Shown here: piece by piece, positions 1,240-47,208 of the stretch | Position numbering within the stretch: position 1 is the stretch's first letter | Layout of the letters: each line of letters begins with the position of its first letter | IMG/VR virus record: IMGVR_UViG_3300037487_000968 | Coordinates: 141,280-205,279 of that record | Reading direction: 5' to 3' (one strand) | Length of the DNA: 64,000 nucleotides | Source of the DNA: a virus | Taxonomy: Duplodnaviria; Heunggongvirae; Uroviricota; Caudoviricetes | Program-made: the position numbers and the translations under genes | The notes under the pieces: generated by a model | What the model was told of the DNA's origin: nothing | What the model saw: the letters and a program-made list of their open reading frames with translations, nothing else | Databases searched by the model: none

Positions 1240-2637
1240 TCATTCTTCTACCTCAACCTTTTCCGGCTTGATAGCAGCAGCGAACTGAGCTTCAATCTCT
1301 GCGAAACTATCAGCAACTGTTTTGTCAGGCCGCGACTCAATCAACCGGGGCAGGAACAAAGAATGTTTCTTACCAGCCTTAGTGGAATACATAATACCAT
1401 TTGATCGGATGGTGACAATGCTGTTCATCCACTCGGCACGATTATTGTGTATTTCGTTCCGCAAGTCATCTGGGATACCCGAAGCATTGACCTCAAGCAG
1501 GCCGCAGCTACTCTGACAAGTAAGTGAGCCAAACAAGTGGGCAAACTTGTTTTTACCGGCGGTAAAACCTATTACTTCAAGCTCAACATCAACTACTTCC
1601 TTCTGCTTGACTTGATCCTTGCTTGTGCCATCCTTCCAGATAGCGTGGCGACTCTTACATACGGTGCCTTCCAGCTTACGCCTGCGAGCATCACGATAAT
1701 GTGCAAGTGCTTCATCGGGCGAATAAACAATCTTTGTTTCAATCAGCTGGATCTGAATAACATCAGTTCCTTGCAAGACAGGTTTCATTACCTGTTTTTC
1801 AAGCGATGTGTAACGTTCGTGATAAGAAACATTGTATTTGCCCTTAGAAACAAAAGCTTCTAATGGAATCTGATCCCAACAATCAAAAACAACAATCTCA
1901 CCTTCACCGAACGACCCACCTTTGGAAACAGAATTCAAAATCCCATTTCCAATTTGGCGTTCCAACATCACCCCGTTACGATACACAGTAAGTTCACCGT
2001 GTGTGCTCGTTCCATGTGTAAATGTTTTTGTGGCGGCAGCTTCAATGCCAAGCACATCCTGTGGCATCACTGTGCCGCCACGAGAAGTAATTTGAACAAA
2101 TCCGTCCTTGCTTACATTTACATAAGCAAACATTCCATCTGCTTTGATCTCTGAATACACGCCTTCGGAATAATCCCATTCTTCCATATTGGAAGATTCA
2201 GGAAGGCTACACCGCATATAAGGAGTGACAGGAATTTCATAATCCTTGTTTACACCTTTGACAGCTTTGTTCACAGTAGATTCTGAGAAGCCGCTGCCCA
2301 AATCTTTTATCAATAATTTTCGATACCAGCCATTCCATTGTTCATTAGTTGATCTCAACATAGACATATTGATTGCGTCCAACGCCGCATGACCTGTTAC
2401 CACACGATTGATCAACGCAAAGGCAAGTGTCTTAAACATAACAAATGGTAAACCAGCACCATCCGGCCCAGTACGAACCGGGACCTTCTTCACACCAAAG
2501 GTATCAATATTGTCTAAGGCGTACCTTAATCCAGCGAAAAATTCATCGTTGCCGGCTTGCGCTTCTCTGCGAATAACACCCTGTTTGAAGAGTTTGCTGT
2601 TGTCGGATGCGATTTCTGTAAGTAGTTGGTGTGTCAT
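1240..2637 (-). CDS. ATP-dependent DNA ligase (T4 gp30-like)
   Basis: 465 aa with nucleotidyltransferase motif I EIKADGMF (KxDG). Size and downstream motifs fit a DNA ligase rather than an RNA ligase. Confidence 0.7.
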   Translation of the reverse strand: MTHQLLTEIASDNSKLFKQGVIRREAQAGNDEFFAGLRYALDNIDTFGVKKVPVRTGPDGAGLPFVMFKTLAFALINRVVTGHAALDAINMSMLRSTNEQWNGWYRKLLIKDLGSGFSESTVNKAVKGVNKDYEIPVTPYMRCSLPESSNMEEWDYSEGVYSEIKADGMFAYVNVSKDGFVQITSRGGTVMPQDVLGIEAAATKTFTHGTSTHGELTVYRNGVMLERQIGNGILNSVSKGGSFGEGEIVVFDCWDQIPLEAFVSKGKYNVSYHERYTSLEKQVMKPVLQGTDVIQIQLIETKIVYSPDEALAHYRDARRRKLEGTVCKSRHAIWKDGTSKDQVKQKEVVDVELEVIGFTAGKNKFAHLFGSLTCQSSCGLLEVNASGIPDDLRNEIHNNRAEWMNSIVTIRSNGIMYSTKAGKKHSLFLPRLIESRPDKTVADSFAEIEAQFAAAIKPEKVEVEE

Positions 2638-6508: not shown

Positions 6509-6593
6509 TGGTGCGGCTGGCCGGACTCGAACCGGCACACCTTTCGGCGAGAGATTTTAAGTCTCTTGTGTCTACCAATTTCACCACAGCCGC
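6509..6593 (-). tRNA. tRNA-Leu (anticodon TAA), class II with long variable arm
   Basis: The reverse complement folds as a cloverleaf: GCGGCTG acceptor stem, anticodon loop CTTAAAA, TTCGAGT T-loop, encoded CCA, 85 nt. Confidence 0.75.
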
Positions 6594-8427: not shown

Positions 8428-8504
8428 TGGTGGGTCGGGAGGGACTCGAACCCCCAATCAACAAATTATGAGTTTGCTGCCTTAACCAATTTGGCCACCG
8501 ACCC
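8428..8504 (-). tRNA. tRNA-Met (anticodon CAT), elongator type, or Ile2 if lysidinylated
   Basis: Cloverleaf with G1-C72 pair, anticodon loop CTCATAA, T-arm GGGGGTTCGAGTCCCTC, encoded CCA, 77 nt. Confidence 0.75.
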
Positions 8505-9394: not shown

Positions 9395-9471
9395 TGGCCT
9401 GACCGGAGGGACTCGAACCCCCGACCTACAGCTTAGAAGGCTGTTGCTCTATCCAGTTGAGCTACGGTCAG
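9395..9471 (-). tRNA. tRNA-Arg (anticodon TCT)
   Basis: Acceptor CTGACCG/CGGTCAG, D-arm GCTCAACTGGATAGAGC, anticodon stem ACAGC/GCTGT with loop CTTCTAA, encoded CCA. The T-arm is identical to that of tRNA-Met. Confidence 0.75.
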
Positions 9472-9674: not shown

Positions 9675-9893
9675 TTACTTGGCTGGTGTTGATGCTGCCT
9701 TGGCTGGAGCAACTGCCTTTTTAGCTTTCTTAGCTTTAACTGCCTTCTTAGCAGGTGCAGCCTTAGCAGGTGCAGCAGGAGCAGCAACTGGTGCCGCAAC
9801 AGCAGGAGCAGCTACGGCAGCAGGTGCAACCGGTGCGGCAGCAAAAGCAGCAAAAGCAACAGTAGCAAGAACGAGAGTGATAAGTTTTTTCAT
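9675..9893 (-). CDS. Secreted Ala/Pro/Lys-rich low-complexity protein (histone-H1/AlgP-like AKKA repeats)
   Basis: N-terminal signal peptide MKKLITLVLATVAFAAFA, then PA(A/V)AAP and AKKAVKAKKAKKA repeats. The local GC content is higher than that of neighbouring genes. Confidence 0.45.
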   Translation of the reverse strand: MKKLITLVLATVAFAAFAAAPVAPAAVAAPAVAAPVAAPAAPAKAAPAKKAVKAKKAKKAVAPAKAASTPAK

Positions 9894-9972: not shown

Positions 9973-10350
9973 TCAATGTAATGTTGGTAAAGTTTCTTCG
10001 TGGTCGATATTAATCAATCCTCCCTGTTGAGAGATATCAATAAGGTGATTGGTGAGATTTTTGTATGAATCGTTGAGTTCTCGTTCATTCCGTAGGATCA
10101 TACGAAGAATATTTCGGCAATGCTCTGGAGAAATATCCTGCACTTGCAGCATTTCTCCAGCTTCATTAAACCAAATTTCTTCTGGAAATACCTTACCATC
10201 CAGTGCAGTATAGGTTTTATGTTCCTGCCATTGTACCTTGAAGCCAGTATTATCGGGCAGTTCCTGTACCTCGATCACATATTTGTGTGAATTGACTATA
10301 GGTCTTACAAGTTCTTCAAGTTCTTCGTATGTTCCGACTTCTTGTTTCAT
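9973..10350 (-). CDS. hypothetical protein
   Basis: 125-aa ORF. Its start overlaps the stop of the HFGVE-family gene by ATGA. Confidence 0.45.
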   Translation of the reverse strand: MKQEVGTYEELEELVRPIVNSHKYVIEVQELPDNTGFKVQWQEHKTYTALDGKVFPEEIWFNEAGEMLQVQDISPEHCRNILRMILRNERELNDSYKNLTNHLIDISQQGGLINIDHEETLPTLH

Positions 10351-10556
10351 TCTTCAACTCCGAAATGATCTAACACATTTAACGCAGACTTCGGTCCAGT
10401 CTTATCAAAGACTACTTTAGCACATTCCCGGACAATCAGCTCAGCAAATTTCTCCAAGTCAAACTCAGATACTTCGTCTTCGAGCACGCCCGAAAACTGT
10501 GCCGGTGTCAAATTTATTCCAGCCTTAATGGCAAGTTCTAAAATTCGTTTATTCAT
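10347..10556 (-). CDS. Small protein of the FAELIVREC...HFGVE paralog family
   Basis: 69 aa with KFAELIVRECA and a DHFGVEE C-terminus. Homologous to five small ORFs at 32.9-35.2 kb. Confidence 0.5.
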   Translation of the reverse strand: MNKRILELAIKAGINLTPAQFSGVLEDEVSEFDLEKFAELIVRECAKVVFDKTGPKSALNVLDHFGVEE

Positions 10557-10846
10557 TTAACTACCTTATTCTTTCCACAAGTACATTGGCGCCCTTGGTT
10601 ACAGTCGTGATTACAACCGGTCTTGCACCACTCTACAAGTTTAAGCCAAAATGCCAACAAATTAGCTTTCATCTTGCCTCTCCTTTGAATCTTTCTTTTG
10701 GGCCTGTCTTTCAGACTTCCAAAAGATTCGTTTCCAATCTCTTAAATGTTTCCACCACTGCGGTGCAGGAGTGAGTTGTCCTTGTCTTTTTTGAGCCATA
10801 ATGTATTATAATAATAATTAGTGCTAATGTCAAAGTTCCGGAGATC

Positions 10847-21860: not shown

Positions 21861-23069
21861 CTACCTTTTGCTTTGCGGGGAATGACTATCTGGCTCATAC
21901 CAGGCAGTCATACCAAACGGCGCAACAATACTACGTTTCGCATCACCGTGTATAAGGAACAGTGTATCGCAGTACAAAGGATCGCCCCAACCACCACAAG
22001 GATAACCATCAGTCATCATAATGAAACGTTCTGGCTCGATATTGTTTTCCTTCATATATGTCCAGTTGCATTCGAAACTTGTGCCACCACCACCCTTGAT
22101 TTCGTAATCATCAATCTCATCAATTGTATCCGGTGTAAACTTGGCATGATTATAAACCTTTGTATCAAAGCACCAGACTTCTAATTCGAAGTCAGTAAAT
22201 TGCTGCATGATACCTTTGGTTTCACTCAGCAAGTCCCTGAGCATATCATCGCCCATAGAACCCGAACAGTCAATTGAAACTGCTGCCTTAACTTTAACAT
22301 CTTCTTTGGTGCCTGGGAGATAGATACCACTTGCTTGACTTTTACGCGAGCAACGGCTCCATGTAAAATCATTCTTAATCATGGATTGAATCTTCATGTT
22401 AAGGATCTCACGCCAATCCATTTGTGGCTCAACCAAATCTTTCAAGAGACGCTTAACACCACCCGGTGTATTACCTGCACCGGCAGATTTAGCAGCCTGC
22501 ATAACCGCAGCTCTGATTTCGTCTGAAAGGTTGCGTTGTTCTTCCTCAGTCATCGGCTCGCCTTTACCATCCCCTGGTTCAAGGTGGATGTCGAATTCGG
22601 GCCAATTGCTGTTTGGATCCTTCAGCAACAGTTCATACACTTCCTCTGCGAACATGCCTTTATACTTTGCATCGAAGCAGGCCTGCACACCAGATGTCTT
22701 TGGATCTGGAAGTTTGCCAATATTGTGTTCGTGGAGTTCATAGTTGATAACAAAGTCTGCTGCCGCGTTCCACATTTTGGGCTTGCGACCTCCACGACGA
22801 CTCATGTGATCATAAACACAGTGTTCAACTTCGTGTGCTACCAAGAAGATACACTCTTGTTTATTAAGTTTTGAAATGAAATCGCGATTGTAGTAGAAAT
22901 AACGACCATCAGTTCCAGCAGTTTTGCACCATGGCTGATCGGTAGCATCTCTTAAAATTAAACGAGTTGCAAGTGTACCCCAAAATGGTTGCTGGAGTAG
23001 TAGAGAAATACGTGCCCGGATAATCTGTTCCAGGACCGCTTCGGGGCTGGTATCTGTTGCTGCTGCCAT
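21861..23069 (-). CDS. von Willebrand factor A domain protein (CobT-like partner of the CobS-like ATPase)
   Basis: MIDAS motif VSIDCSGSMG (DxSxS) in a 402-aa protein, located next to the MoxR/CobS-type ATPase gene. Confidence 0.55.
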   Translation of the reverse strand: MAAATDTSPEAVLEQIIRARISLLLQQPFWGTLATRLILRDATDQPWCKTAGTDGRYFYYNRDFISKLNKQECIFLVAHEVEHCVYDHMSRRGGRKPKMWNAAADFVINYELHEHNIGKLPDPKTSGVQACFDAKYKGMFAEEVYELLLKDPNSNWPEFDIHLEPGDGKGEPMTEEEQRNLSDEIRAAVMQAAKSAGAGNTPGGVKRLLKDLVEPQMDWREILNMKIQSMIKNDFTWSRCSRKSQASGIYLPGTKEDVKVKAAVSIDCSGSMGDDMLRDLLSETKGIMQQFTDFELEVWCFDTKVYNHAKFTPDTIDEIDDYEIKGGGGTSFECNWTYMKENNIEPERFIMMTDGYPCGGWGDPLYCDTLFLIHGDAKRSIVAPFGMTAWYEPDSHSPQSKR

Positions 23070-25790: not shown

Positions 25791-26438
25791 TTAGAAAAAC
25801 ATTCCACCAATAACCAAGGTACCAATAGTTAATGCAATCATTACCCAGAATGCAAGCCATTCACCGTCATCTTCAAGATCTTTGAATCCTTTGGGTACAC
25901 GAATCAACTTGGTACCTTTAAATAATCCGCCAAGCCGGCTGTATTCTACCTTTTCATATCCTTTTGTGAATAATCGTAGATACAACATTCTAGAGATAGA
26001 TAGCCCTACAGTAACAAACAAAGCACCATACATCATTTTAATGGCTGCGGCTCCTGCAAGTTTCCATATAATTAGCATTGCTGTCAATCTACCTGCATCT
26101 GTATGCAAGAAATCATTTACAGTAACACCAAGTTCTTTTGCGGCAATGCCGATTGCCTTGGCAAAACCTTCTGCTGCTGCTGCCGCCTGTGTACCCCATG
26201 TTGCAGCCATGCCAATATGAGTACATATATCAGCAGCCGCCGGATTCTCAACAACCTTAGCGGCCCGTGCCACAGCCGCTGCGGCCTGTGATTTCAACTC
26301 AGCCACTTGAGCTTCAGATAAACCACTTACATCTACCGTTGTTTGGGCAGCAAACGAAGTAATAACAGTCAATGCCATTGCAATTGATGCAATAATTTTA
26401 CGAAACATATATTTCCTTATTAAAATGCGTTCATCCAT
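25791..26438 (-). CDS. Membrane protein (N-terminal signal/TM segment, Ala-rich amphipathic region, C-terminal TM segments)
   Basis: Hydrophobic stretches at both ends of a 215-aa protein. Confidence 0.45.
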   Translation of the reverse strand: MDERILIRKYMFRKIIASIAMALTVITSFAAQTTVDVSGLSEAQVAELKSQAAAAVARAAKVVENPAAADICTHIGMAATWGTQAAAAAEGFAKAIGIAAKELGVTVNDFLHTDAGRLTAMLIIWKLAGAAAIKMMYGALFVTVGLSISRMLYLRLFTKGYEKVEYSRLGGLFKGTKLIRVPKGFKDLEDDGEWLAFWVMIALTIGTLVIGGMFF

Positions 26439-27505
26439 GTGTATGGAAGAGACTTGAATTGATTTTCACGAGTGAATACCAATACAAGTGTGTTTGCCTT
26501 ACCTTCATTCAGCACATATGTAAACGTGCCTGCTTCGGGATCAATTTTCTTTAAGTCACGCGGTGTAACTTCGAATGTGGTTGTACTGGCATCTTCAACT
26601 TCCGGTGTAAGATTAATCTCAAAGGTAAGATCATCTTGCGAAAGAGGATTGCCGCGAATGGTATCAGGCCACACAAACTCGGAATTGATTTCTTTGCCTT
26701 CAGCGAAAACACTAACATGGTGCTTAACGTTACCTGCATCAATAGGTTTGGCATTCAGCATTTCCATTGCTTGATTAGGCGTTTCGTTATAACGATTCAT
26801 TTCTTCAACCAATGCTTTAAGCATGTCGAAATTAAACGAATCAAACATCATTGTTAGTTTAACAATTTGCGAAATATATTCCTTGCTATTGAGATTATCA
26901 TTACAATATTCTTCAATGAACGCAGAATCTAATCCTGTGAAATCGAGCATATAGAAAATGCGGCCAGGGCGATTACGCATATGCGAGCTGACACGGTATT
27001 TGTCATTCACAGTAAGCACAAACAATTTCTTTGTGGGATATACACCATCCAGCAAAGTTAAAGTTGCTTCCTGTTCGTCATTATCAAATACCTTCTCAAA
27101 TTCATCAAACACAATAACACACGGTTCGTCAATCTCTTGAATGAATGTGTTGAAGCTATCGCCACAAAATGGCGTATTAATAACAAGTGTAGAAATACCT
27201 GATTGTGCGGCTTTCTGCGAAATCAGTTTAGCAAGCATTGTCTTGCCACTACCTTTTTCACCATTAAGCAAAACACCGGTAGTATTTGGTCGTTGGCCAA
27301 ATGTGCTAAGAATACGATCAGCTTGATGTGTAGTTTTGCCATAGATCTTGCCGCTGACATTAAAGTCAGTAATAGGCTTTAGGAACCAGCCTTTTTCCGG
27401 GTGATTACCTACCGTATAGGTGCCGACAGGCAGCTTATTTCTGACATCAAAAACGCCTTGCTTGGTAGGCCACAGAAGTTCACCACTCTTAAGATAAAAT
27501 GACAT
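26420..27505 (-). CDS. AAA+ ATPase
   Basis: Walker A LLNGEKGSGKT and Walker B CVIVFDEFE. 361 aa. Confidence 0.55.
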   Translation of the reverse strand: MSFYLKSGELLWPTKQGVFDVRNKLPVGTYTVGNHPEKGWFLKPITDFNVSGKIYGKTTHQADRILSTFGQRPNTTGVLLNGEKGSGKTMLAKLISQKAAQSGISTLVINTPFCGDSFNTFIQEIDEPCVIVFDEFEKVFDNDEQEATLTLLDGVYPTKKLFVLTVNDKYRVSSHMRNRPGRIFYMLDFTGLDSAFIEEYCNDNLNSKEYISQIVKLTMMFDSFNFDMLKALVEEMNRYNETPNQAMEMLNAKPIDAGNVKHHVSVFAEGKEINSEFVWPDTIRGNPLSQDDLTFEINLTPEVEDASTTTFEVTPRDLKKIDPEAGTFTYVLNEGKANTLVLVFTRENQFKSLPYTWMNAF

Positions 27506-31372: not shown

Positions 31373-32596
31373 TTACTTAGCAGTCTTGCCCTTAGTGACA
31401 GACATATCAATACCCAGTTCACGGGCAGTCTTAGCAGTGAGCATTTCAACAAGCGCCGCAGCACCATTTCCACCTGCACCACTGTTACCCATCACCACAC
31501 TCGGAACCCAAGCGCCTTGATAGTTACCCATCGCCTCAGCATACGCCTTGGAGACTTCAACATACGCAGCAAGTTTTGTATCCAAAGCACCGTCAGCGTT
31601 CATTCGCAGAGCCTTAGCCTGTGCATCACCTTCACCACGAAGAATCTGTTCCTTCTTGTATTGTTCAGCAGCCTTTGCACCGAGAGTTGCCACGGCCACA
31701 GCCTTTTCAGCGAAAGCAATTTCCTTGGCGTTCAGTGTTTCTTGTTCCCACTTAGCCTTAGCCGCAGTTGCCTTACCTTGTTGCTCAGTTGTAATCGCAT
31801 CTTGTTCAGCCTTCTTTGCGTTGGCGATAGAGATTTGAACACCGGTTGTAGATTGTTGACGTTGCTTGATCTGGTCTTCAACGATCTGGTCGTACTTGAT
31901 TTCGTTGATTGAGACCGGCTGTAAAATGATGCCATACTTCGTAATCTGGGATTCAGATTCACGCATCGGCTGACCCTTGTCATTCATCGCAATCTGAACC
32001 ACAGCAACTTGCTTATCAGCACCAGTGATCGGATCCTTCTGTGTGACTGTAACAGTCTTTGTCAGATACGGGCCGTGAATCAACTGATCGTCAATGTACT
32101 TCGGAATCTCAGGACGCTTTTCAGCCGATGATTCAGTTGAACTCATTGTGGGTCCGACATTGTAAATCACCTTCTGCATAGCCGGGCGAATCAATTGCTG
32201 CTCAATGGCGCCGACTGATCCGAAGTCCTTGTGAAGCGCCACGATTTGTTCGTGCTTCAAAGGCATCTGCCAGTTCACTGTTCCGGAGATGTTACCGTGA
32301 CCACCGTCATTGAAGCGAGTGGAGATTGATTCATCAGTTGTCTTTCCCTGATCTTTCACGGAACTAAACGAGAACTGATCACGCCGTTGATACGTTGTAA
32401 CTTTGCCGAACGCCTGGGCTTTCCAACCGGGTTCAGTAAAAGTATTCAGATCGCCGCCAAGCGCCTGAATCACCATGAGGTTCTTCGCATCAAGATTTTC
32501 CACCAGCATTGGCAGACAGATAAGAGTTGCCAGAAATGCGATTCCTGCCAACGCCGCCGTAAGAATTCGGCGGGGTGTGACTGTGGGTGTGTTCAT
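31373..32596 (-). CDS. SPFH/Band-7 domain protein (stomatin/HflK/flotillin-like)
   Basis: N-terminal TM segment, SPFH-like core and a C-terminal Ala/Glu/Lys coiled-coil EQILRGEGDAQAKALRMNADG typical of the HflK/stomatin family. Confidence 0.6.
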   Translation of the reverse strand: MNTPTVTPRRILTAALAGIAFLATLICLPMLVENLDAKNLMVIQALGGDLNTFTEPGWKAQAFGKVTTYQRRDQFSFSSVKDQGKTTDESISTRFNDGGHGNISGTVNWQMPLKHEQIVALHKDFGSVGAIEQQLIRPAMQKVIYNVGPTMSSTESSAEKRPEIPKYIDDQLIHGPYLTKTVTVTQKDPITGADKQVAVVQIAMNDKGQPMRESESQITKYGIILQPVSINEIKYDQIVEDQIKQRQQSTTGVQISIANAKKAEQDAITTEQQGKATAAKAKWEQETLNAKEIAFAEKAVAVATLGAKAAEQYKKEQILRGEGDAQAKALRMNADGALDTKLAAYVEVSKAYAEAMGNYQGAWVPSVVMGNSGAGGNGAAALVEMLTAKTARELGIDMSVTKGKTAK

Positions 32597-32619
32597 ATAA
32601 AAATTTTCCTGTGTATAGT

Positions 32620-32886
32620 TTACGATTTAATCACTGTTTCAGCGATTTGCTTCTCAAGGGCAACTTGCTCTTGATTGATTTCGAACAGTCGTTTTTGCAA
32701 ACGATATAGTTCGGTTTTTTCTTCCAGTGCGTGCTCGGCGTTCTCGACTGCGACAAGCAGTGGCGTCACCTTACGGAACATTGGAAAGAAAGGGGTACTG
32801 AACAGGAAGGGCATTATCACTTGCGTGAGAAAACCTACGAATAGCACAAATGCTACAAGCCCGCCAATTAGTTCTAAAAATACCAT
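32620..32886 (-). CDS. Small membrane protein, NfeD-like partner of the SPFH protein
   Basis: 88 aa with an N-terminal TM helix, sitting immediately upstream of the SPFH gene as in bacterial NfeD-SPFH operons. Confidence 0.4.
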   Translation of the reverse strand: MVFLELIGGLVAFVLFVGFLTQVIMPFLFSTPFFPMFRKVTPLLVAVENAEHALEEKTELYRLQKRLFEINQEQVALEKQIAETVIKS

Positions 32887-32942
32887 ATAAACTCCTTTGT
32901 GTGTAGTGTATTATATGTAATCAACAATAAACGGTCAATTGG

Positions 32943-33191
32943 TTATAAATCTTGTTGATTGTCTTCAAAGTGTTTTGTAATTACTGAGGCAAAATATTCC
33001 CGACGATATCGGTCTTTGGTCATAATAACATCAGTACATTCTTTAATGATTAGTTCGGCAAATCTTTCATTATATAGTTGAAACCAGGTCTGGTTGAATG
33101 TATTGCGATCTGCTACACCTTCAGACGCCATTGCGTTGATTGGATCAAATGCCTGTTCAGCAAGTTCTTTAATTCGGTTGTTCATTACCAA
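32943..33191 (-). CDS. FAELI(V/I)KEC-family small protein
   Basis: RIKELAEQA...RFAELIIKEC...ITKHFEDNQQDL. Paralog of the gene at 10347-10556. Confidence 0.5.
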   Translation of the reverse strand: MVMNNRIKELAEQAFDPINAMASEGVADRNTFNQTWFQLYNERFAELIIKECTDVIMTKDRYRREYFASVITKHFEDNQQDL

Positions 33192-33379
33192 CCCTCTACG
33201 CCGGATACTTCAATCTTAAATTCGCCCTCTTCACCTTCGATTGTAGTCCGTATTGTCATAGAAGTTACTGATCCAATTCCGCTCGAATTATCTTGTTCAA
33301 CTAAGATGGTTTCGATATTAGGAAATTTATCCATAATCTCTACCATCTTCTTCAAATCATCTCTGTGTATGTACATCAT
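33185..33379 (-). CDS. hypothetical small protein
   Basis: 64 aa. Its start overlaps the stop of the upstream HFGVE gene. Confidence 0.4.
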   Translation of the reverse strand: MMYIHRDDLKKMVEIMDKFPNIETILVEQDNSSGIGSVTSMTIRTTIEGEEGEFKIEVSGVEGW

Positions 33380-33618
33380 TCAACTCCGAAATGTTTTGCT
33401 AACTCTTCCCCAACATCAACATCGTAGTAATGAACTGTGCCGGCATCGAGCCGTTCACTACCTTGATATAAGTCGTCACTCACTCGGATGCATTCCTGCA
33501 CAATAAGTTCTGCAAACTTACCAAGTTGAATCATGGCAAACTGATTGTCACCTTCTTGTGTGTTTTTATCTGCATACGCATAGGCTTGCTTTTGCAGGGC
33601 TAAAAGTCGTTCGTTCAT
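33376..33618 (-). CDS. HFGVE-family small protein
   Basis: MNERLLALQKQA...KFAELIVQEC...AKHFGVE. Confidence 0.5.
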   Translation of the reverse strand: MNERLLALQKQAYAYADKNTQEGDNQFAMIQLGKFAELIVQECIRVSDDLYQGSERLDAGTVHYYDVDVGEELAKHFGVE

Positions 33619-33803
33619 TCTTTTACTCCGAAATGTTTAAACATCGCAACTACCCCTTCATGATCGTGCCCGCAAAACTCACCACATTCCCGAACAATCA
33701 ACTCGGCGAACTTATCCGGATTGAACTCGTTTGCAGGGCCGTCGTCCCCATCCCAGTTAGGGTTGGTAGCTTGTTTTTTAAGTTCTTTTAATCGTTCATT
33801 CAT
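33615..33803 (-). CDS. HFGVE-family small protein (start at the internal MNE, not the 138-aa extended frame)
   Basis: MNERLKELKK...KFAELIVREC...KHFGVKE. Its ATG lies in an ATGAATGA overlap with the upstream gene's stop, inside the conserved junction cassette. Confidence 0.5.
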   Translation of the reverse strand: MNERLKELKKQATNPNWDGDDGPANEFNPDKFAELIVRECGEFCGHDHEGVVAMFKHFGVKE

Positions 33804-34077
33804 GCTTCGGCTCCATCCAATGTGACTTACCCTTGGTAAGCATTTTTTTGATAAACTCGGCCTCTTCCCACGAAGTGCATACCATCCTGATTGTGGATGA
33901 TCCGTGATATGTTTCATCCCAAAACCACAGTTTGTTTTCAGTCGGTGAGTAGCACAATTCGTACAGATGATCTGGTCTGCACCCATCTCCTTGCGGGCAC
34001 TGACATTGGTAGTAAGTGAAACCGGTACCATCTATGTATTCCTTCTCGTCCCGCCACTTTGTTTTAGGTTCATTCAT
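33796..34077 (-). CDS. Cys-rich small protein ending MEPKHE
   Basis: 93 aa. Starts MNE and ends MEPKHE at cassette copy 1. Confidence 0.45.
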   Translation of the reverse strand: MNEPKTKWRDEKEYIDGTGFTYYQCQCPQGDGCRPDHLYELCYSPTENKLWFWDETYHGSSTIRMVCTSWEEAEFIKKMLTKGKSHWMEPKHE

Positions 34078-34331
34078 GCTTCGGCTCCAAATAATTTACC
34101 AAACTCGTTCGCTTTATTCTTGTCTTTGAACCAGAACATATACTTGAATCCTGGACTACAAGAACACTCTTTCCCTGCCTTAAACTTATCCAGATTAAAC
34201 GAGTATGCGGACGACACTAATACCTCACCTGCTTCACGCAGCGGTTCAATATAGGTGATGATTTTCTCATTCTCGCCAGTCTCAGGATACGGACGAGGAA
34301 TATTGATGGTAAACAGAAATTCTTCATTCAT
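34074..34331 (-). CDS. Small protein ending KLFGAEA (frame-variant of the HFGVE end)
   Basis: 85 aa. Starts MNE. Its C-terminus is encoded by the same cassette read in another frame. Confidence 0.45.
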   Translation of the reverse strand: MNEEFLFTINIPRPYPETGENEKIITYIEPLREAGEVLVSSAYSFNLDKFKAGKECSCSPGFKYMFWFKDKNKANEFGKLFGAEA

Positions 34332-34542
34332 GCTTCGGCTCCAGACTACCGCGTTCTAACCAAAGCGCAATGGCATTGTTGGATGTGTGGGATACATGTT
34401 CAATCCCTTTACTATCCACAAAAATAATGTCTTTACCGTCAAACTTTAGGTGACCATTCTCTGGTCTGATGATCATGTCATACGAATCATTGTGTGTCAG
34501 AAAACCTAACACAACGGGCCGCAGGATTGTATATTCATTCAT
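34324..34542 (-). CDS. Small protein ending LEPKHE
   Basis: 72 aa. Starts MNE and has an 8-nt overlap with the downstream gene. Confidence 0.45.
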   Translation of the reverse strand: MNEYTILRPVVLGFLTHNDSYDMIIRPENGHLKFDGKDIIFVDSKGIEHVSHTSNNAIALWLERGSLEPKHE

Positions 34543-34741
34543 GCTTCGGCTCCATACCCTCTGGGTTTAACAGTTGAAAACAAACATACTCCTGGCAATC
34601 GCTGCCAGGGTCTCTTTTTTCTTTATGTAGGCGACACCAACCATCGCCAGTGTAACGACCCTCGGCGTCCGCATTAAAGTTATAGTAGGCACAGTGGTCA
34701 CAGCAAGTATAACCAGGGGCACAATCCGGACATAGTTTCAT
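34535..34741 (-). CDS. Cys-rich (zinc-binding) small protein ending MEPKHE
   Basis: CPDCAPGYTCCDHCAYY...CRLH. 68 aa. Confidence 0.45.
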   Translation of the reverse strand: MKLCPDCAPGYTCCDHCAYYNFNADAEGRYTGDGWCRLHKEKRDPGSDCQEYVCFQLLNPEGMEPKHE

Positions 34742-34935
34742 AGAATTTTCTTATTTAGAATACCAGCCTCTGCCAGTGAGTAGAAAGCAATAACTAGGTT
34801 GAACATCGGTACCATAGCGATCAACGCACTAATTAGTAAATCAGCAATAGTAAGATACCCTTGCTTCTTTCGTGTACTATAGAAAATACATACAAAAGAA
34901 AATAATACCATTAAAAAATAAAGTGTTCCCATCAT
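34738..34935 (-). CDS. Small two-TM membrane protein
   Basis: 65 aa and highly hydrophobic. Confidence 0.4.
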   Translation of the reverse strand: MMGTLYFLMVLFSFVCIFYSTRKKQGYLTIADLLISALIAMVPMFNLVIAFYSLAEAGILNKKIL

Positions 34936-35123
34936 TCGACTCCAAAATGTTTCTTCACGTCCTCGGGCCTGATGTTACCGTGGCCATCTGTCAACCCCAG
35001 GCACTCCTTGACAATAAGGTCAGCGAACATTCTGTAGTCGAAATCTCGCAATCCTTCGTGATCACTGCCGTAGGGAGCAATTAGACCGGCCTTTCTTGCT
35101 AGATCTCTTATATGATCAGTCAT
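34932..35123 (-). CDS. HFGVE-family small protein (start at internal Met MTDH)
   Basis: IRDLARKAGL...MFADLIVKEC...KKHFGVE. Has an 8-nt ATGACTGA overlap with the upstream stop. Confidence 0.5.
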   Translation of the reverse strand: MTDHIRDLARKAGLIAPYGSDHEGLRDFDYRMFADLIVKECLGLTDGHGNIRPEDVKKHFGVE

Positions 35124-36941: not shown

Positions 36942-36999
36942 AACTGATCCTTTGTCCTATTATAATACAAAATACAAAATAGGTCAACAATACCGGAGA

Positions 37000-45357: not shown

Positions 45358-47208
45358 TCATGCCAAACTCGCAAACAGGTGAATCTGCATCTGCATCTTA
45401 AATCCATGCTGCATACAATATTGCCCAACATACTTGTGGTTAGCCTCATTCTTTTCCATATCAAGTAACCCCGGTTCCCACCATGAAATAATCTCATCAA
45501 CTGTGCTACGCTCTGCCATAGTGATCTCACCCTTCTCTGCCCTGAGTAGTTTGATCTTCTGCGGGAAAGAATTATAAATGTTCATTGGGCTACAATAGAT
45601 ATCCTTGCCTGTCTTTACTTTCCAATCATGTGCCCACTGTGGCACATTGTTATAAGGACTTTCTGTATCTGCACTCATAACAAACTTCAAGCAGTCTGCA
45701 CGATCTAAAATAGTTTTAGATGGTGCGTAATACTTCACGGCCTTACCATCCTTCTCCATGCACTTGGGAGAGCAAACGAGTGTAACACCGTCTGGTACTA
45801 CTGTATCAGGAATACCGTTGCTTTCAACTTGTACTGCTTTGAAATACATCTTTTGTTGATATTGCATAAACGCAGAGATGTTTTCTTGCAGCAACGGTTC
45901 GCCGCCAGTCATTACTAATACGATATTAGGATACAGCTTGCCTATCCGAGTTTTGTTCAGTGCCCAATCTGGTGCAGCAATTCCTTTTTCGTTGTTAAAG
46001 TACCCGCAAATAGTATTGTGGATCTTAGTTTCAATCTGTATAAACGTCATCCAATCGCCATCGTCAAAGAAAGTATCACAATTATGTACTACACATCCGT
46101 TAGCAATATATGTATGTGTATCTTCTACTTCGAAATTATAAACGGTACGTTCGGCAGTTTTACTACCGAATAATCTTGCCCATCCTCTTCCGTCGGTTTC
46201 ATTTACAAACTCTACACTCTTTACTACTTTACCGTTATGAATAAATTCCGCAACCTTTTCGCGTATTTTACTATGTTCGGACATTTTAAGCTCGCTCTGA
46301 ACAAGTGGTAAGAATAAAGTATCATACCCTTCTTTAGCAAATAGCGCCTTGCGTTTTTCCATCCACTCTTTACCACGAGGAGATTTTTTAACCCATAGTG
46401 AGTCATCTGCCCAAACTTCAATTACTTTCTTTTGTCCGTTTACAACAAAGTCGGGTACTTTATGCTGGATAACTAAATCCCCGGCACCTACAAAAGTAAT
46501 AGGTAATCCTTCACATATTTTTTCTACTTTAATCTCTAATCCAGATTTAAGTTGTGTTTCTCGATTAACCCAAGATTTTAGAGCAGTAGCAGGATCTTTC
46601 ATTGGATTACCTGCGCCCGTTAAGCGTTCGATATTTTTCTCTCTAAACTCCGGGTCTTCCCATAACGCAGATAATCTTGTTGCTGCTTTATCTTTTTCAT
46701 CCTGAGACATAGGTGCACGATTTGCCAGGTCAAACGCAGGATTAAACACTTTCCTGCGGTCAGATAACGACCAGTGTACAATTTTGTCACCTGCCACTAA
46801 ATCCTCGGCATTAACCCAACTCCTATTAGAGGTTAAGAATGGATGTTCTGGCGTACACCAAACCGGCTCGCCTGAGCTGGTTACTTTAACAATTTTGTCT
46901 GCGATAGACCTGTATGTGCGTGTAACCTTCTTAGGAACCATTTTATCCTTGTCCCACGACATAACCATGTCACCTACTTTGACTTGGTCGATTCGTTTAG
47001 ATTTTCCATCTGCCATTGTAATCTTAGTAGACGGTACAAAGCAAAAGCTACAATCTAAATTGCACTTTGCTAGACGGATGAAGAGTGCGGGCGTGCCAGC
47101 GTATGGTCCTTCTCCCTGAAGAGTGAAGAACATGCTTGTTACAAACAGGCTATCCTTGGGTGCATCCTTAAAATACTTCTTACCGATAATTTCATTAGTT
47201 CCGAACAT
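45358..47208 (-). CDS. queE: 7-carboxy-7-deazaguanine synthase QueE (radical SAM) interrupted by an intein
   Basis: N-extein GEGPYAGTPALFIRLAKCNLDCSF plus C-extein CDTFFDDGDW reconstitute the QueE CX3CX2C-DT signature. Inserted between them are 321 aa bearing intein blocks A (CFVPSTKITMADG), B (TPEHPF) and G (VVHN|C). Confidence 0.8.
   Translation of the reverse strand: MFGTNEIIGKKYFKDAPKDSLFVTSMFFTLQGEGPYAGTPALFIRLAKCNLDCSFCFVPSTKITMADGKSKRIDQVKVGDMVMSWDKDKMVPKKVTRTYRSIADKIVKVTSSGEPVWCTPEHPFLTSNRSWVNAEDLVAGDKIVHWSLSDRRKVFNPAFDLANRAPMSQDEKDKAATRLSALWEDPEFREKNIERLTGAGNPMKDPATALKSWVNRETQLKSGLEIKVEKICEGLPITFVGAGDLVIQHKVPDFVVNGQKKVIEVWADDSLWVKKSPRGKEWMEKRKALFAKEGYDTLFLPLVQSELKMSEHSKIREKVAEFIHNGKVVKSVEFVNETDGRGWARLFGSKTAERTVYNFEVEDTHTYIANGCVVHNCDTFFDDGDWMTFIQIETKIHNTICGYFNNEKGIAAPDWALNKTRIGKLYPNIVLVMTGGEPLLQENISAFMQYQQKMYFKAVQVESNGIPDTVVPDGVTLVCSPKCMEKDGKAVKYYAPSKTILDRADCLKFVMSADTESPYNNVPQWAHDWKVKTGKDIYCSPMNIYNSFPQKIKLLRAEKGEITMAERSTVDEIISWWEPGLLDMEKNEANHKYVGQYCMQHGFKMQMQIHLFASLA
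46081..47043 (-). mobile_element. Intein (aa 56-376 of the QueE precursor), large enough to carry an endonuclease domain
   Basis: Starts with Cys1, has a TxxH block B, ends YIANGCVVHN and is followed by a +1 Cys that is also the third Fe-S ligand. Confidence 0.75.

Follow-up and report, generated by a model that had tools for sequence, protein, structure and literature searches.

A family of small phage proteins with reassorting variable segments and a C-terminal tail that may provide the ribosome site of the next gene

The stretch of DNA considered here, referred to as the window, consists of 64,000 nucleotides (nt) of a tailed-phage record (IMGVR_UViG_3300037487_000968, positions 141,280 to 205,279) and encodes five members of a very large, unnamed family of small proteins. 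The members, designated A to E, share the layout MNERIKEL..QA - V1 - KFAELIVREC - V2 - (I/L)xKHF, in which three conserved motifs enclose two variable segments, V1 and V2. The two segments reassort almost freely between members, with breakpoints at the conserved motifs. In four of the five members the codons following the last motif form a short cassette that may act as the Shine-Dalgarno sequence of the next gene. It seems probable, without being assured, that these are shuffled, small, acidic, early proteins that recombine at their motifs, that their tail cassette would supply the ribosome site of the following gene, and that the proteins would bind host factors. Related loci are numbered L001 to L086 and related proteins carry P-numbers.

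Members of the family and their distribution

The motif F[AK][ED]L[IV][IV].EC occurs at exactly five sites in the six-frame translation of the 64-kb window, all on the minus strand, and a hidden Markov model (HMM) of the family selects exactly the same five open reading frames (ORFs). A profile built from homologs outside the window scores all of them (E of 4e-33 for D, 1e-16 for A, 1e-15 for C, 2e-13 for B and 1.6e-10 for E). The ORFs have in common an N-terminal helix motif MNxRIxEL, the central KFAELIVREC and a C-terminal KHF. The family definition used here, MNxRIxEL with F-A-E-L-I-V-x-E-C and (K/E)HF in a protein of 57–90 amino acids (aa), includes all five:

10347..10556, minus strand: member A (69 aa, C-terminus DHFGVEE*), whose stop codon overlaps the start ATG of the gene that follows (9973-10350)
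32943..33185, minus strand: member B (80 aa if started at the ATG at 33185), which closes its operon; the tail KHFEDNQQDL* lacks GGAG, no gene is coupled to it downstream, and a promoter follows directly
33376..33618, minus strand: member C, 80 aa, ends KHFGVE*; junction GGAGTTGAATGATG; AlphaFold2 model made
33615..33803, minus strand: member D (62 aa, C-terminus KHFGVKE*), with a stop codon that overlaps the start ATG of C; AlphaFold2 model made
34932..35123, minus strand: member E, 63 aa, ends KHFGVE*; junction GGAGTCGAATGATG

For B, the ATG at 33185 (MNNRIKEL) is the more likely start and is favoured over the TTG at 33191; the starts of D and E are retained as they were given in an earlier note on this DNA, which was made from the letters alone. 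That note described a multicopy family of small genes without assigned function, and the family is real by motif, HMM and independent-profile matches. It counted six paralogs. Five are true paralogs by the same three lines of evidence, and the sixth, the ORF at 34074-34331, does not match the profile from non-window homologs even with filters off.

One explanation for the resemblance is that the ORFs are unrelated and their terminal peptides are alike only through the constraint of a downstream ribosome site. This is true of 34074-34331 and of several unrelated proteins ending in GVEE* in other loci. For A to E it has next to no chance of being right and is already refuted. The similarity is not confined to the last six residues, because the N-terminal, central and C-terminal motifs are all common to the five. 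The independent profile recovers each of them (E of 2e-10 to 4e-33), and for most pairs of members the BLASTP alignment runs over the whole protein or the greater part of it.

AlphaFold2 models of D and C (predicted local distance difference test scores of 84.7 and 80.9) give one helix for each of the three motifs, so that the motifs are predicted to form the helices of a small three-helix bundle, the helical bundle for which the earlier note had proposed to look. In both models GVE(E) lies outside the last helix. The Cys and the His of the family are invariant and might form a metal or redox site. A three-helix arrangement could also suggest small DNA-binding regulators with a helix-turn-helix-like fold, a reading that we regard as highly improbable.

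The family is large. A word-indexed search with D returns 777 matches, none with a Pfam annotation, and an exhaustive profile search brings the number of 50%-identity cluster representatives to 8,594 at E ≤ 1e-3, of which 1,492 remain at E ≤ 1e-10. A profile search of the kind that the earlier note had suggested matches thousands of clusters. Copy numbers and codon statistics were taken from 80 related IMG/VR loci (L001-L080) of ~8 kb each, in which the family HMM finds 288 copies, up to 12 per locus and always on one strand. The family occurs as tandem arrays in contigs of uncultured, mostly freshwater, phages. Members are acidic, with a median isoelectric point of 4.84 compared with 6.44 for the remaining small ORFs of these loci (p = 2e-33). 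Several proteins (P0098, P0027, P0122, P0131 and P0143) are structural variants; among these one has a duplicated tail (LKHFGVEELKHHFGVEE) and one reads through into a downstream zinc-ribbon-like sequence. The others are two-domain tandem fusions of 116–158 aa.

Searches for a named relative gave little. Pfam returns no match for five of the six ORFs tested and the sixth matches only at E 0.16. Profile-HMM scans of 31 members yield scattered weak Pfam matches, the best being Phage_TAC_5 (E 3e-4, 3/31), and PHROG gives only marginal matches (E ≥ 1e-3) in one or two members. Scans of members against NCBIfam and PADLOC return nothing. A profile search of PDB sequences finds chance matches only (best PARP14, E 0.03 over 20 residues), Foldseek against BFVD finds only uncharacterised proteins of 'uncultured Caudovirales phage', and the motif strings of the family were not found in the literature. 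Against 50,697 deposited phage genomes, megablast of the region gives no match and tblastn with two family sequences gives nothing at E ≤ 1e-3. Four chance-level tblastn matches appear at E ≤ 10, and the best of these, inside a 231-aa Sinorhizobium phage protein, was dropped. Among 185,579 species genomes scanned, only 15 short contigs carry the family. They lie in metagenome-assembled genomes, most of them lake-labelled, that are assigned to unrelated phyla. Most likely they are phage DNA binned by mistake, and no host is assigned from them. The family is thus real, very large and unnamed, and its combinatorial architecture is well supported.

Reassortment of the variable segments

V1 and V2 have a median length of ~20 aa each, and their sequences are unrelated between members. 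Breakpoints can be located by comparison with L001 (IMGVR_UViG_3300036985_002287), a close relative of the window that has several neighbouring genes in common with it. At the DNA level, C and its counterpart in L001 share ~95% identity between the upstream junction and the QEC codons, and the sequences beyond are unrelated. D and its counterpart have no similarity up to AAGTTCGCCGAG, where KFAELIVREC begins, and then match at 100% identity. For B the differences are confined to V1 and the extreme tail. When L001 is compared with window positions 31373-35123, the block of small genes (a Cys-rich gene, genes ending in EPKHE and family members) lies downstream of the SPFH gene in L001 and not upstream, so the whole block has moved relative to this conserved gene.

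The same pattern appears across 358 non-identical members. V1 is at least 80% identical while V2 is below 35% in 194 pairs, and the reverse holds in 268; these 462 pairs compare with only 12 in which both segments are at least 80% identical, a ratio that is inflated to some degree, and to that extent weighs against free reassortment, because database clustering drops some pairs similar in both halves. When the segments are clustered by single linkage at 60% identity, the same members give 236 classes for V1 and 238 for V2. The 15 members of the largest V1 class all differ in their V2 class (15 classes), and the 22 members of the largest V2 class are spread over 17 V1 classes. For one set of two V1 and two V2 alleles all four combinations are present (D, P0004, P0010 and the L086 member), and every window member (5/5) has at least one chimeric relative. 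The differences are replacements of whole segments with changes in length (11–63 aa), not point substitutions. V1 and V2 therefore reassort almost freely, with breakpoints at the conserved motifs. An earlier suggestion of duplication by junction-mediated recombination was right in placing recombination at conserved sequences and too narrow in confining it to the junctions, as the breakpoints fall at all three motifs, including the internal one.

The conserved motifs, which are kept at codon level, may act as short tracts of homology for recombination. Exchange between paralogs and between co-infecting phages would then produce new combinations of V1 and V2. A different possibility is that the gene is a selfish or neutral cassette whose motifs persist by promoting their own spread through recombination, with no specific host target. 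The very high copy number, the turnover of copies, the conservation of motifs at the nucleotide level and the lack of any functional homology found would all be in keeping with such a cassette. Nevertheless, thousands of diverged clusters have kept an open reading frame, the conserved residues lie in confidently predicted helices, the composition is consistently acidic, and the motif codons V39, R40, Q11 and F60 vary synonymously, indicating selection on the protein. A purely selfish element is decidedly unlikely in the light of these features.

C-terminal tails and gene junctions

The Gly-Val codons of A, C, D and E contain GGAG, which is absent in B, and in all four the end of the GGAG is 7 nt from an ATG:

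10358..10361, minus strand: GGAG of A, 7 nt before the ATG at 10348-10350
33384..33387, minus strand: GGAG of C; two ATGs follow, one after 4 nt (33377-33379) and one after 7 nt (33374-33376)
33626..33629, minus strand: GGAG of D; the ATG of C (33616-33618) follows after 7 nt
34940..34943, minus strand: GGAG of E, 4 and 7 nt before two ATGs of the next gene (34738-34935)

The stop/start junctions are ATGA in A and D and GAATGATG in C and E. A distance of 8–9 nt had been given earlier; this is not exact, the spacer to the ATG being 7 nt, and it fits the additional overlapping ATG of C and E if counted from the first G.

In related loci, GGAG-7 nt-ATG is present at the stop of 186 of 262 family ORFs. 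The terminal Gly codon in the 80 loci is GGA in 167/177 cases, compared with 150/549 for other Gly codons of the same proteins; GGAG is present in 155 of these 177 tails, and the spacer is 7 nt in 134/161. This spacing is kept in GVE* tails with TGATG or TAATG junctions, in tails of different length and before GTG or TTG starts. GGA is used in 195/202 cases (97%) when the next base is G and in 16/26 (62%) otherwise (p = 7e-7). The presence of GGAG also follows the genomic layout, being found in 187 of 226 members that have a coupled downstream start and in 10 of 36 that have none (odds ratio 12.5, p = 8e-11). Both the operon-terminal B and its L001 counterpart lack G-V and GGAG and keep H-F. 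The Phe codon directly 5' of the GGAG varies (TTC 126, TTT 93).

Two further observations separate the nucleotide cassette from the peptide. The variant tail KHFRS*, found on nine contigs and confirmed in three sequencing runs, reads AAACATTTTCGGAGTTGAAGAATGAAC, which is the canonical cassette with one extra base; this +1 frameshift removes the peptide tail and leaves the cassette and the downstream ATG intact. In addition, GVEE* encoded by GGAGTTGAAGAATGA ends unrelated proteins (a zinc-ribbon protein, a membrane protein and a 170-aa protein). The (K/E)HF thus belongs to the protein, and G-V-E(-E) is mainly a coding shadow of the junction cassette. To judge from its position and spacing, the cassette may serve as the Shine-Dalgarno sequence and translational-coupling signal of the next gene. 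The proposal that the terminal codons double as the Shine-Dalgarno of the following gene is in this sense supported by the GGA bias, the association with coupling, the spacer, the frameshift variant and the unrelated GVEE* genes, with the caveats that follow.

The frozen tail could instead be the product of concerted evolution (gene conversion or recent exchange) combined with a protein constraint on FGV, the GGAG being incidental. Several observations point this way and weigh against a ribosomal role. Strongly skewed, atypical codons are frozen in all three motifs and not in the tail alone. In L001-L080 (alignment columns 2-5 and 33-38), R4 is encoded by CGA in 165/182 cases and E36 by GAG in 160/187, whereas GAA prevails elsewhere, and the central codons Lys33 AAG, Ala35 GCC, Glu36 GAG and Leu37 TTG run counter to the local preference for GAA, AAA and GCT. 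Recombination homology or a translation-initiation context, among other causes, might account for these motif codons. Because of this general codon freezing, nucleotide conservation of the tail is by itself no proof of a ribosome-binding role, and part of it may come from recombination or gene conversion. Within the tail, Val is GTT in 141 of 158 cases although the T is no part of the Shine-Dalgarno sequence. Some protein-level constraint on FG(V/I) is likely, since extended tails often keep FG(V/I) and GGAG persists in ten of the 36 uncoupled members. It should also be noted that the counts treat related sequences as independent. On the other hand, the free variation of the Phe codon, the fall in GGA preference when the next base is not G, the association of GGAG with coupled starts and the constancy of the 7-nt spacing across tail lengths and GTG or TTG starts are not what incidental conservation would give. 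The same can be said of a second, unrelated cassette in the window that repeats the GGAG-7 nt-ATG arrangement and is translated in two frames. An incidental GGAG accordingly seems unlikely.

This second cassette is an exact 19-nt repeat, GGAGCCGAAGCATGAATGA, composed of GGAG, 7 nt and ATG. It is present in four copies in the window, with none expected by chance, and is read as EPKHE* by three adjoining, mutually unrelated genes and as GAEA* by 34074-34331:

33796..33814, minus strand: junction repeat copy 1, EPKHE*; supplies the start of D
34070..34088, minus strand: junction repeat copy 2, GAEA*, in the other frame
34324..34342, minus strand: junction repeat copy 3, EPKHE*
34535..34553, minus strand: junction repeat copy 4, EPKHE*
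34074..34331, minus strand: ORF that is not a family member; an ORFan whose orthologs are limited to two closely related contigs
33796..34077, minus strand: Cys-rich gene of 93 aa, flanked by exact junction copies 1 and 2

The cassette (GGAG, 7 nt, ATGAATGA) is found in only three related IMG/VR contigs. The ORF at 34074-34331 ends ...TTTGGAGCCGAAGCATGA, and its FGAEA* tail is the junction repeat in the second frame. Since this tail is an exact copy of a sequence read as EPKHE* elsewhere, its likeness to FGVE is a junction artefact. The ORF was also considered as a degenerate member on account of a 26-nt patch with 81% identity to D; this was ruled out by the absence of any profile score, and is further weakened by its orthologs in L085 and L086, which are non-members.

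The gene at 33796-34077 is absent at that position in L085 and L086, where the ortholog of 34074-34331 is followed directly by a family member with a single junction. This is the pattern expected of insertion or deletion by recombination between junction repeats. The downstream family gene also differs between the window and L085/L086, so that no clean single indel can be drawn.

Separately, the DNA ligase gene (1240-2637, minus strand) ends VEVEE* encoded by GAGGTAGAAGAATGA, which is close to GGAGTTGAAGAATGA; the next long ORF lies 160 nt further on.

Operon context, possible function and known systems

The window has a G+C content of 39.6% and is transcribed almost wholly from the minus strand. 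The sequence TTGAC-N16-19-TATAAT has 16 matches on this coding strand compared with 0.31 expected, at 409, 3080, 6613, 7008, 8023, 9605, 10805, 11051, 15219, 17301, 21141, 25756, 32910, 36959, 39672 and 44023. Three of these concern the family directly:

36959..36987, minus strand: near-consensus sigma-70-type promoter (TTGACC-17 nt-TATAAT, 11/12) at the head of the E-D-C-B operon
32910..32938, minus strand: near-consensus promoter (11/12) directly after B, marking the operon end
10805..10833, minus strand: near-consensus promoter upstream of the short operon with A

The first two bracket ~4 kb containing ~17 small, mostly overlapping genes, including E, D, C and B. This arrangement suggests dense host-type promoters ahead of short operons that are probably early, and by analogy with the promoters of T4-type phages the family genes may be expressed early. 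That timing is read from promoter consensus only, which also counts against the overall interpretation. In approximately one third of the window genes AGGA, GGAG or GAGG lies in the 20 nt before the start, mostly at a distance of 5–8 nt, with peaks of AGGA or GGAG at 5–7 nt; the promoter type and these upstream motifs fit a host with Shine-Dalgarno-dependent initiation, and to judge from the promoter type proteobacteria are candidate hosts. Just downstream of the A operon are tRNA genes for Leu(TAA), Met(CAT) and Arg(TCT) at 6509-6593, 8428-8504 and 9395-9471, all on the minus strand. The minus-strand gene at 9675-9893 encodes a 72-aa protein with a hydrophobic N-terminus and an Ala/Pro/Lys-rich low-complexity tail (AAPVAPAAVAAP...AKKAVKAKKAKK) that looks histone-H1-like or linker-like.

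Other genes in the window encode a family-B DNA polymerase, an ATP-dependent ligase, a 5'-3' exonuclease, an SPFH protein, a probably intein-interrupted radical-SAM protein and a DUF2201/VWA protein beside an AAA ATPase. The DNA polymerase is 39–43% identical to those of jumbo myophages (Sinorhizobium phage Phosso, Agrobacterium phage Atu_ph07 and Rak2-like coliphages), and a protein identical to D is present on a 210-kb metagenomic contig. This contig, together with the lack of a near DNA relative among deposited phage genomes, indicates that the window comes from an uncultured large phage. The 616-aa ORF at 45358-47208 (minus strand) combines a weak N-terminal radical-SAM match with a Hint/intein splicing domain and is probably the intein-interrupted radical-SAM enzyme. 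The DUF2201 metallopeptidase/VWA-like protein and the AAA (MoxR-like) ATPase (21861-23069 and 26420-27505, minus strand) lie ~3.4 kb apart.

Taken with the reassortment and the tails, this context is consistent with proteins that would be early, acidic three-helix scaffolds whose specificity would reside in the two inter-helix segments. The tail cassette would couple translation of each gene to that of the next, and would also offer boundary homology for the exchange of whole genes. The proteins themselves may be binders or inhibitors of host factors, used in host takeover or counter-defence. A more specific version can be offered tentatively. In it, a scaffold with two swappable segments, each with hundreds of alleles, would form a combinatorial repertoire carried in early multi-copy arrays; this repertoire would neutralise variable host proteins (defence or surface factors) of the hosts of large freshwater phages, and the motifs would be codon-frozen as recombination sites.

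If these readings hold, the family would be among the largest unnamed phage protein families, with at least 8,594 clusters at 50% identity and none in the cultured phage genomes searched, and its constant scaffold with two shuffled segments would have the design expected of an arms-race binder (counter-defence or host takeover). Three constraints would overlap on one short sequence, namely the protein fold, the ribosome-binding site of the next gene and recombination homology, which bears on the interpretation of synonymous-site conservation. For the annotation of small phage genes, a conserved C-terminal GVEE* or EPKHE* can be a junction artefact and not a protein motif.

Several known systems invite comparison. 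A target of a diversity-generating retroelement is ruled out by the replacement of whole segments instead of adenine-templated point substitutions. No reverse transcriptase was found among the 10 largest window ORFs, to which the scan was limited, the rest of the window not being scanned.

The gp38 adhesins of T2/T6-type phages carry conserved glycine-rich motifs between hypervariable segments; the motifs form the structural core and the segments are exchanged as modules between phages (PMC3157838). The motifs of the present family likewise delimit hypervariable segments that are exchanged independently, as seen in the breakpoints, the class counts and the set of four combinations. There is, however, no relation in sequence or fold. 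gp38 is a single-copy adhesin at the tail-fibre tip, whereas the family proteins are 60–90 aa, acidic and predicted to be helical, and are encoded in many tandem copies in early-type operons. No Pfam or PHROG adhesin match was found that would place them with gp38, and the neighbouring genes are small early-type genes, not tail-fibre genes.

In T4-type phages, hyperplastic regions are shuffled by means of PeSLs, intergenic units consisting of a promoter and a stem-loop terminator (PMC2839356, PMC4122927). As in that system, short boundary repeats amid small non-essential genes bound insertions, deletions or replacements between relatives, here the gene at 33796-34077. The cassettes of the window differ in being coding sequences of 15–19 nt, in which a Shine-Dalgarno sequence and a spacer lead to an overlapping stop/start, and in having no promoter or stem-loop. 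In scans for promoters and terminators no site coincides with a junction repeat, and promoters occur only at operon ends. The one terminator-like stem-loop nearby (34591-34610) is 38 nt from the junction repeat at 34535-34553.

Overlapping stops and starts (ATGA, TGATG) with a Shine-Dalgarno sequence in the upstream coding sequence are ordinary biology of bacterial and phage operons. The family junctions resemble these coupled genes in the stop/start overlap, in the GGAG 7 nt upstream and in the constraint on codon choice in the upstream gene. They differ in that one junction is fixed across hundreds of diverged paralogs and thousands of contigs, and in that this junction dictates the peptide tail GVEE, recurs in unrelated genes and is left intact by a frameshift.

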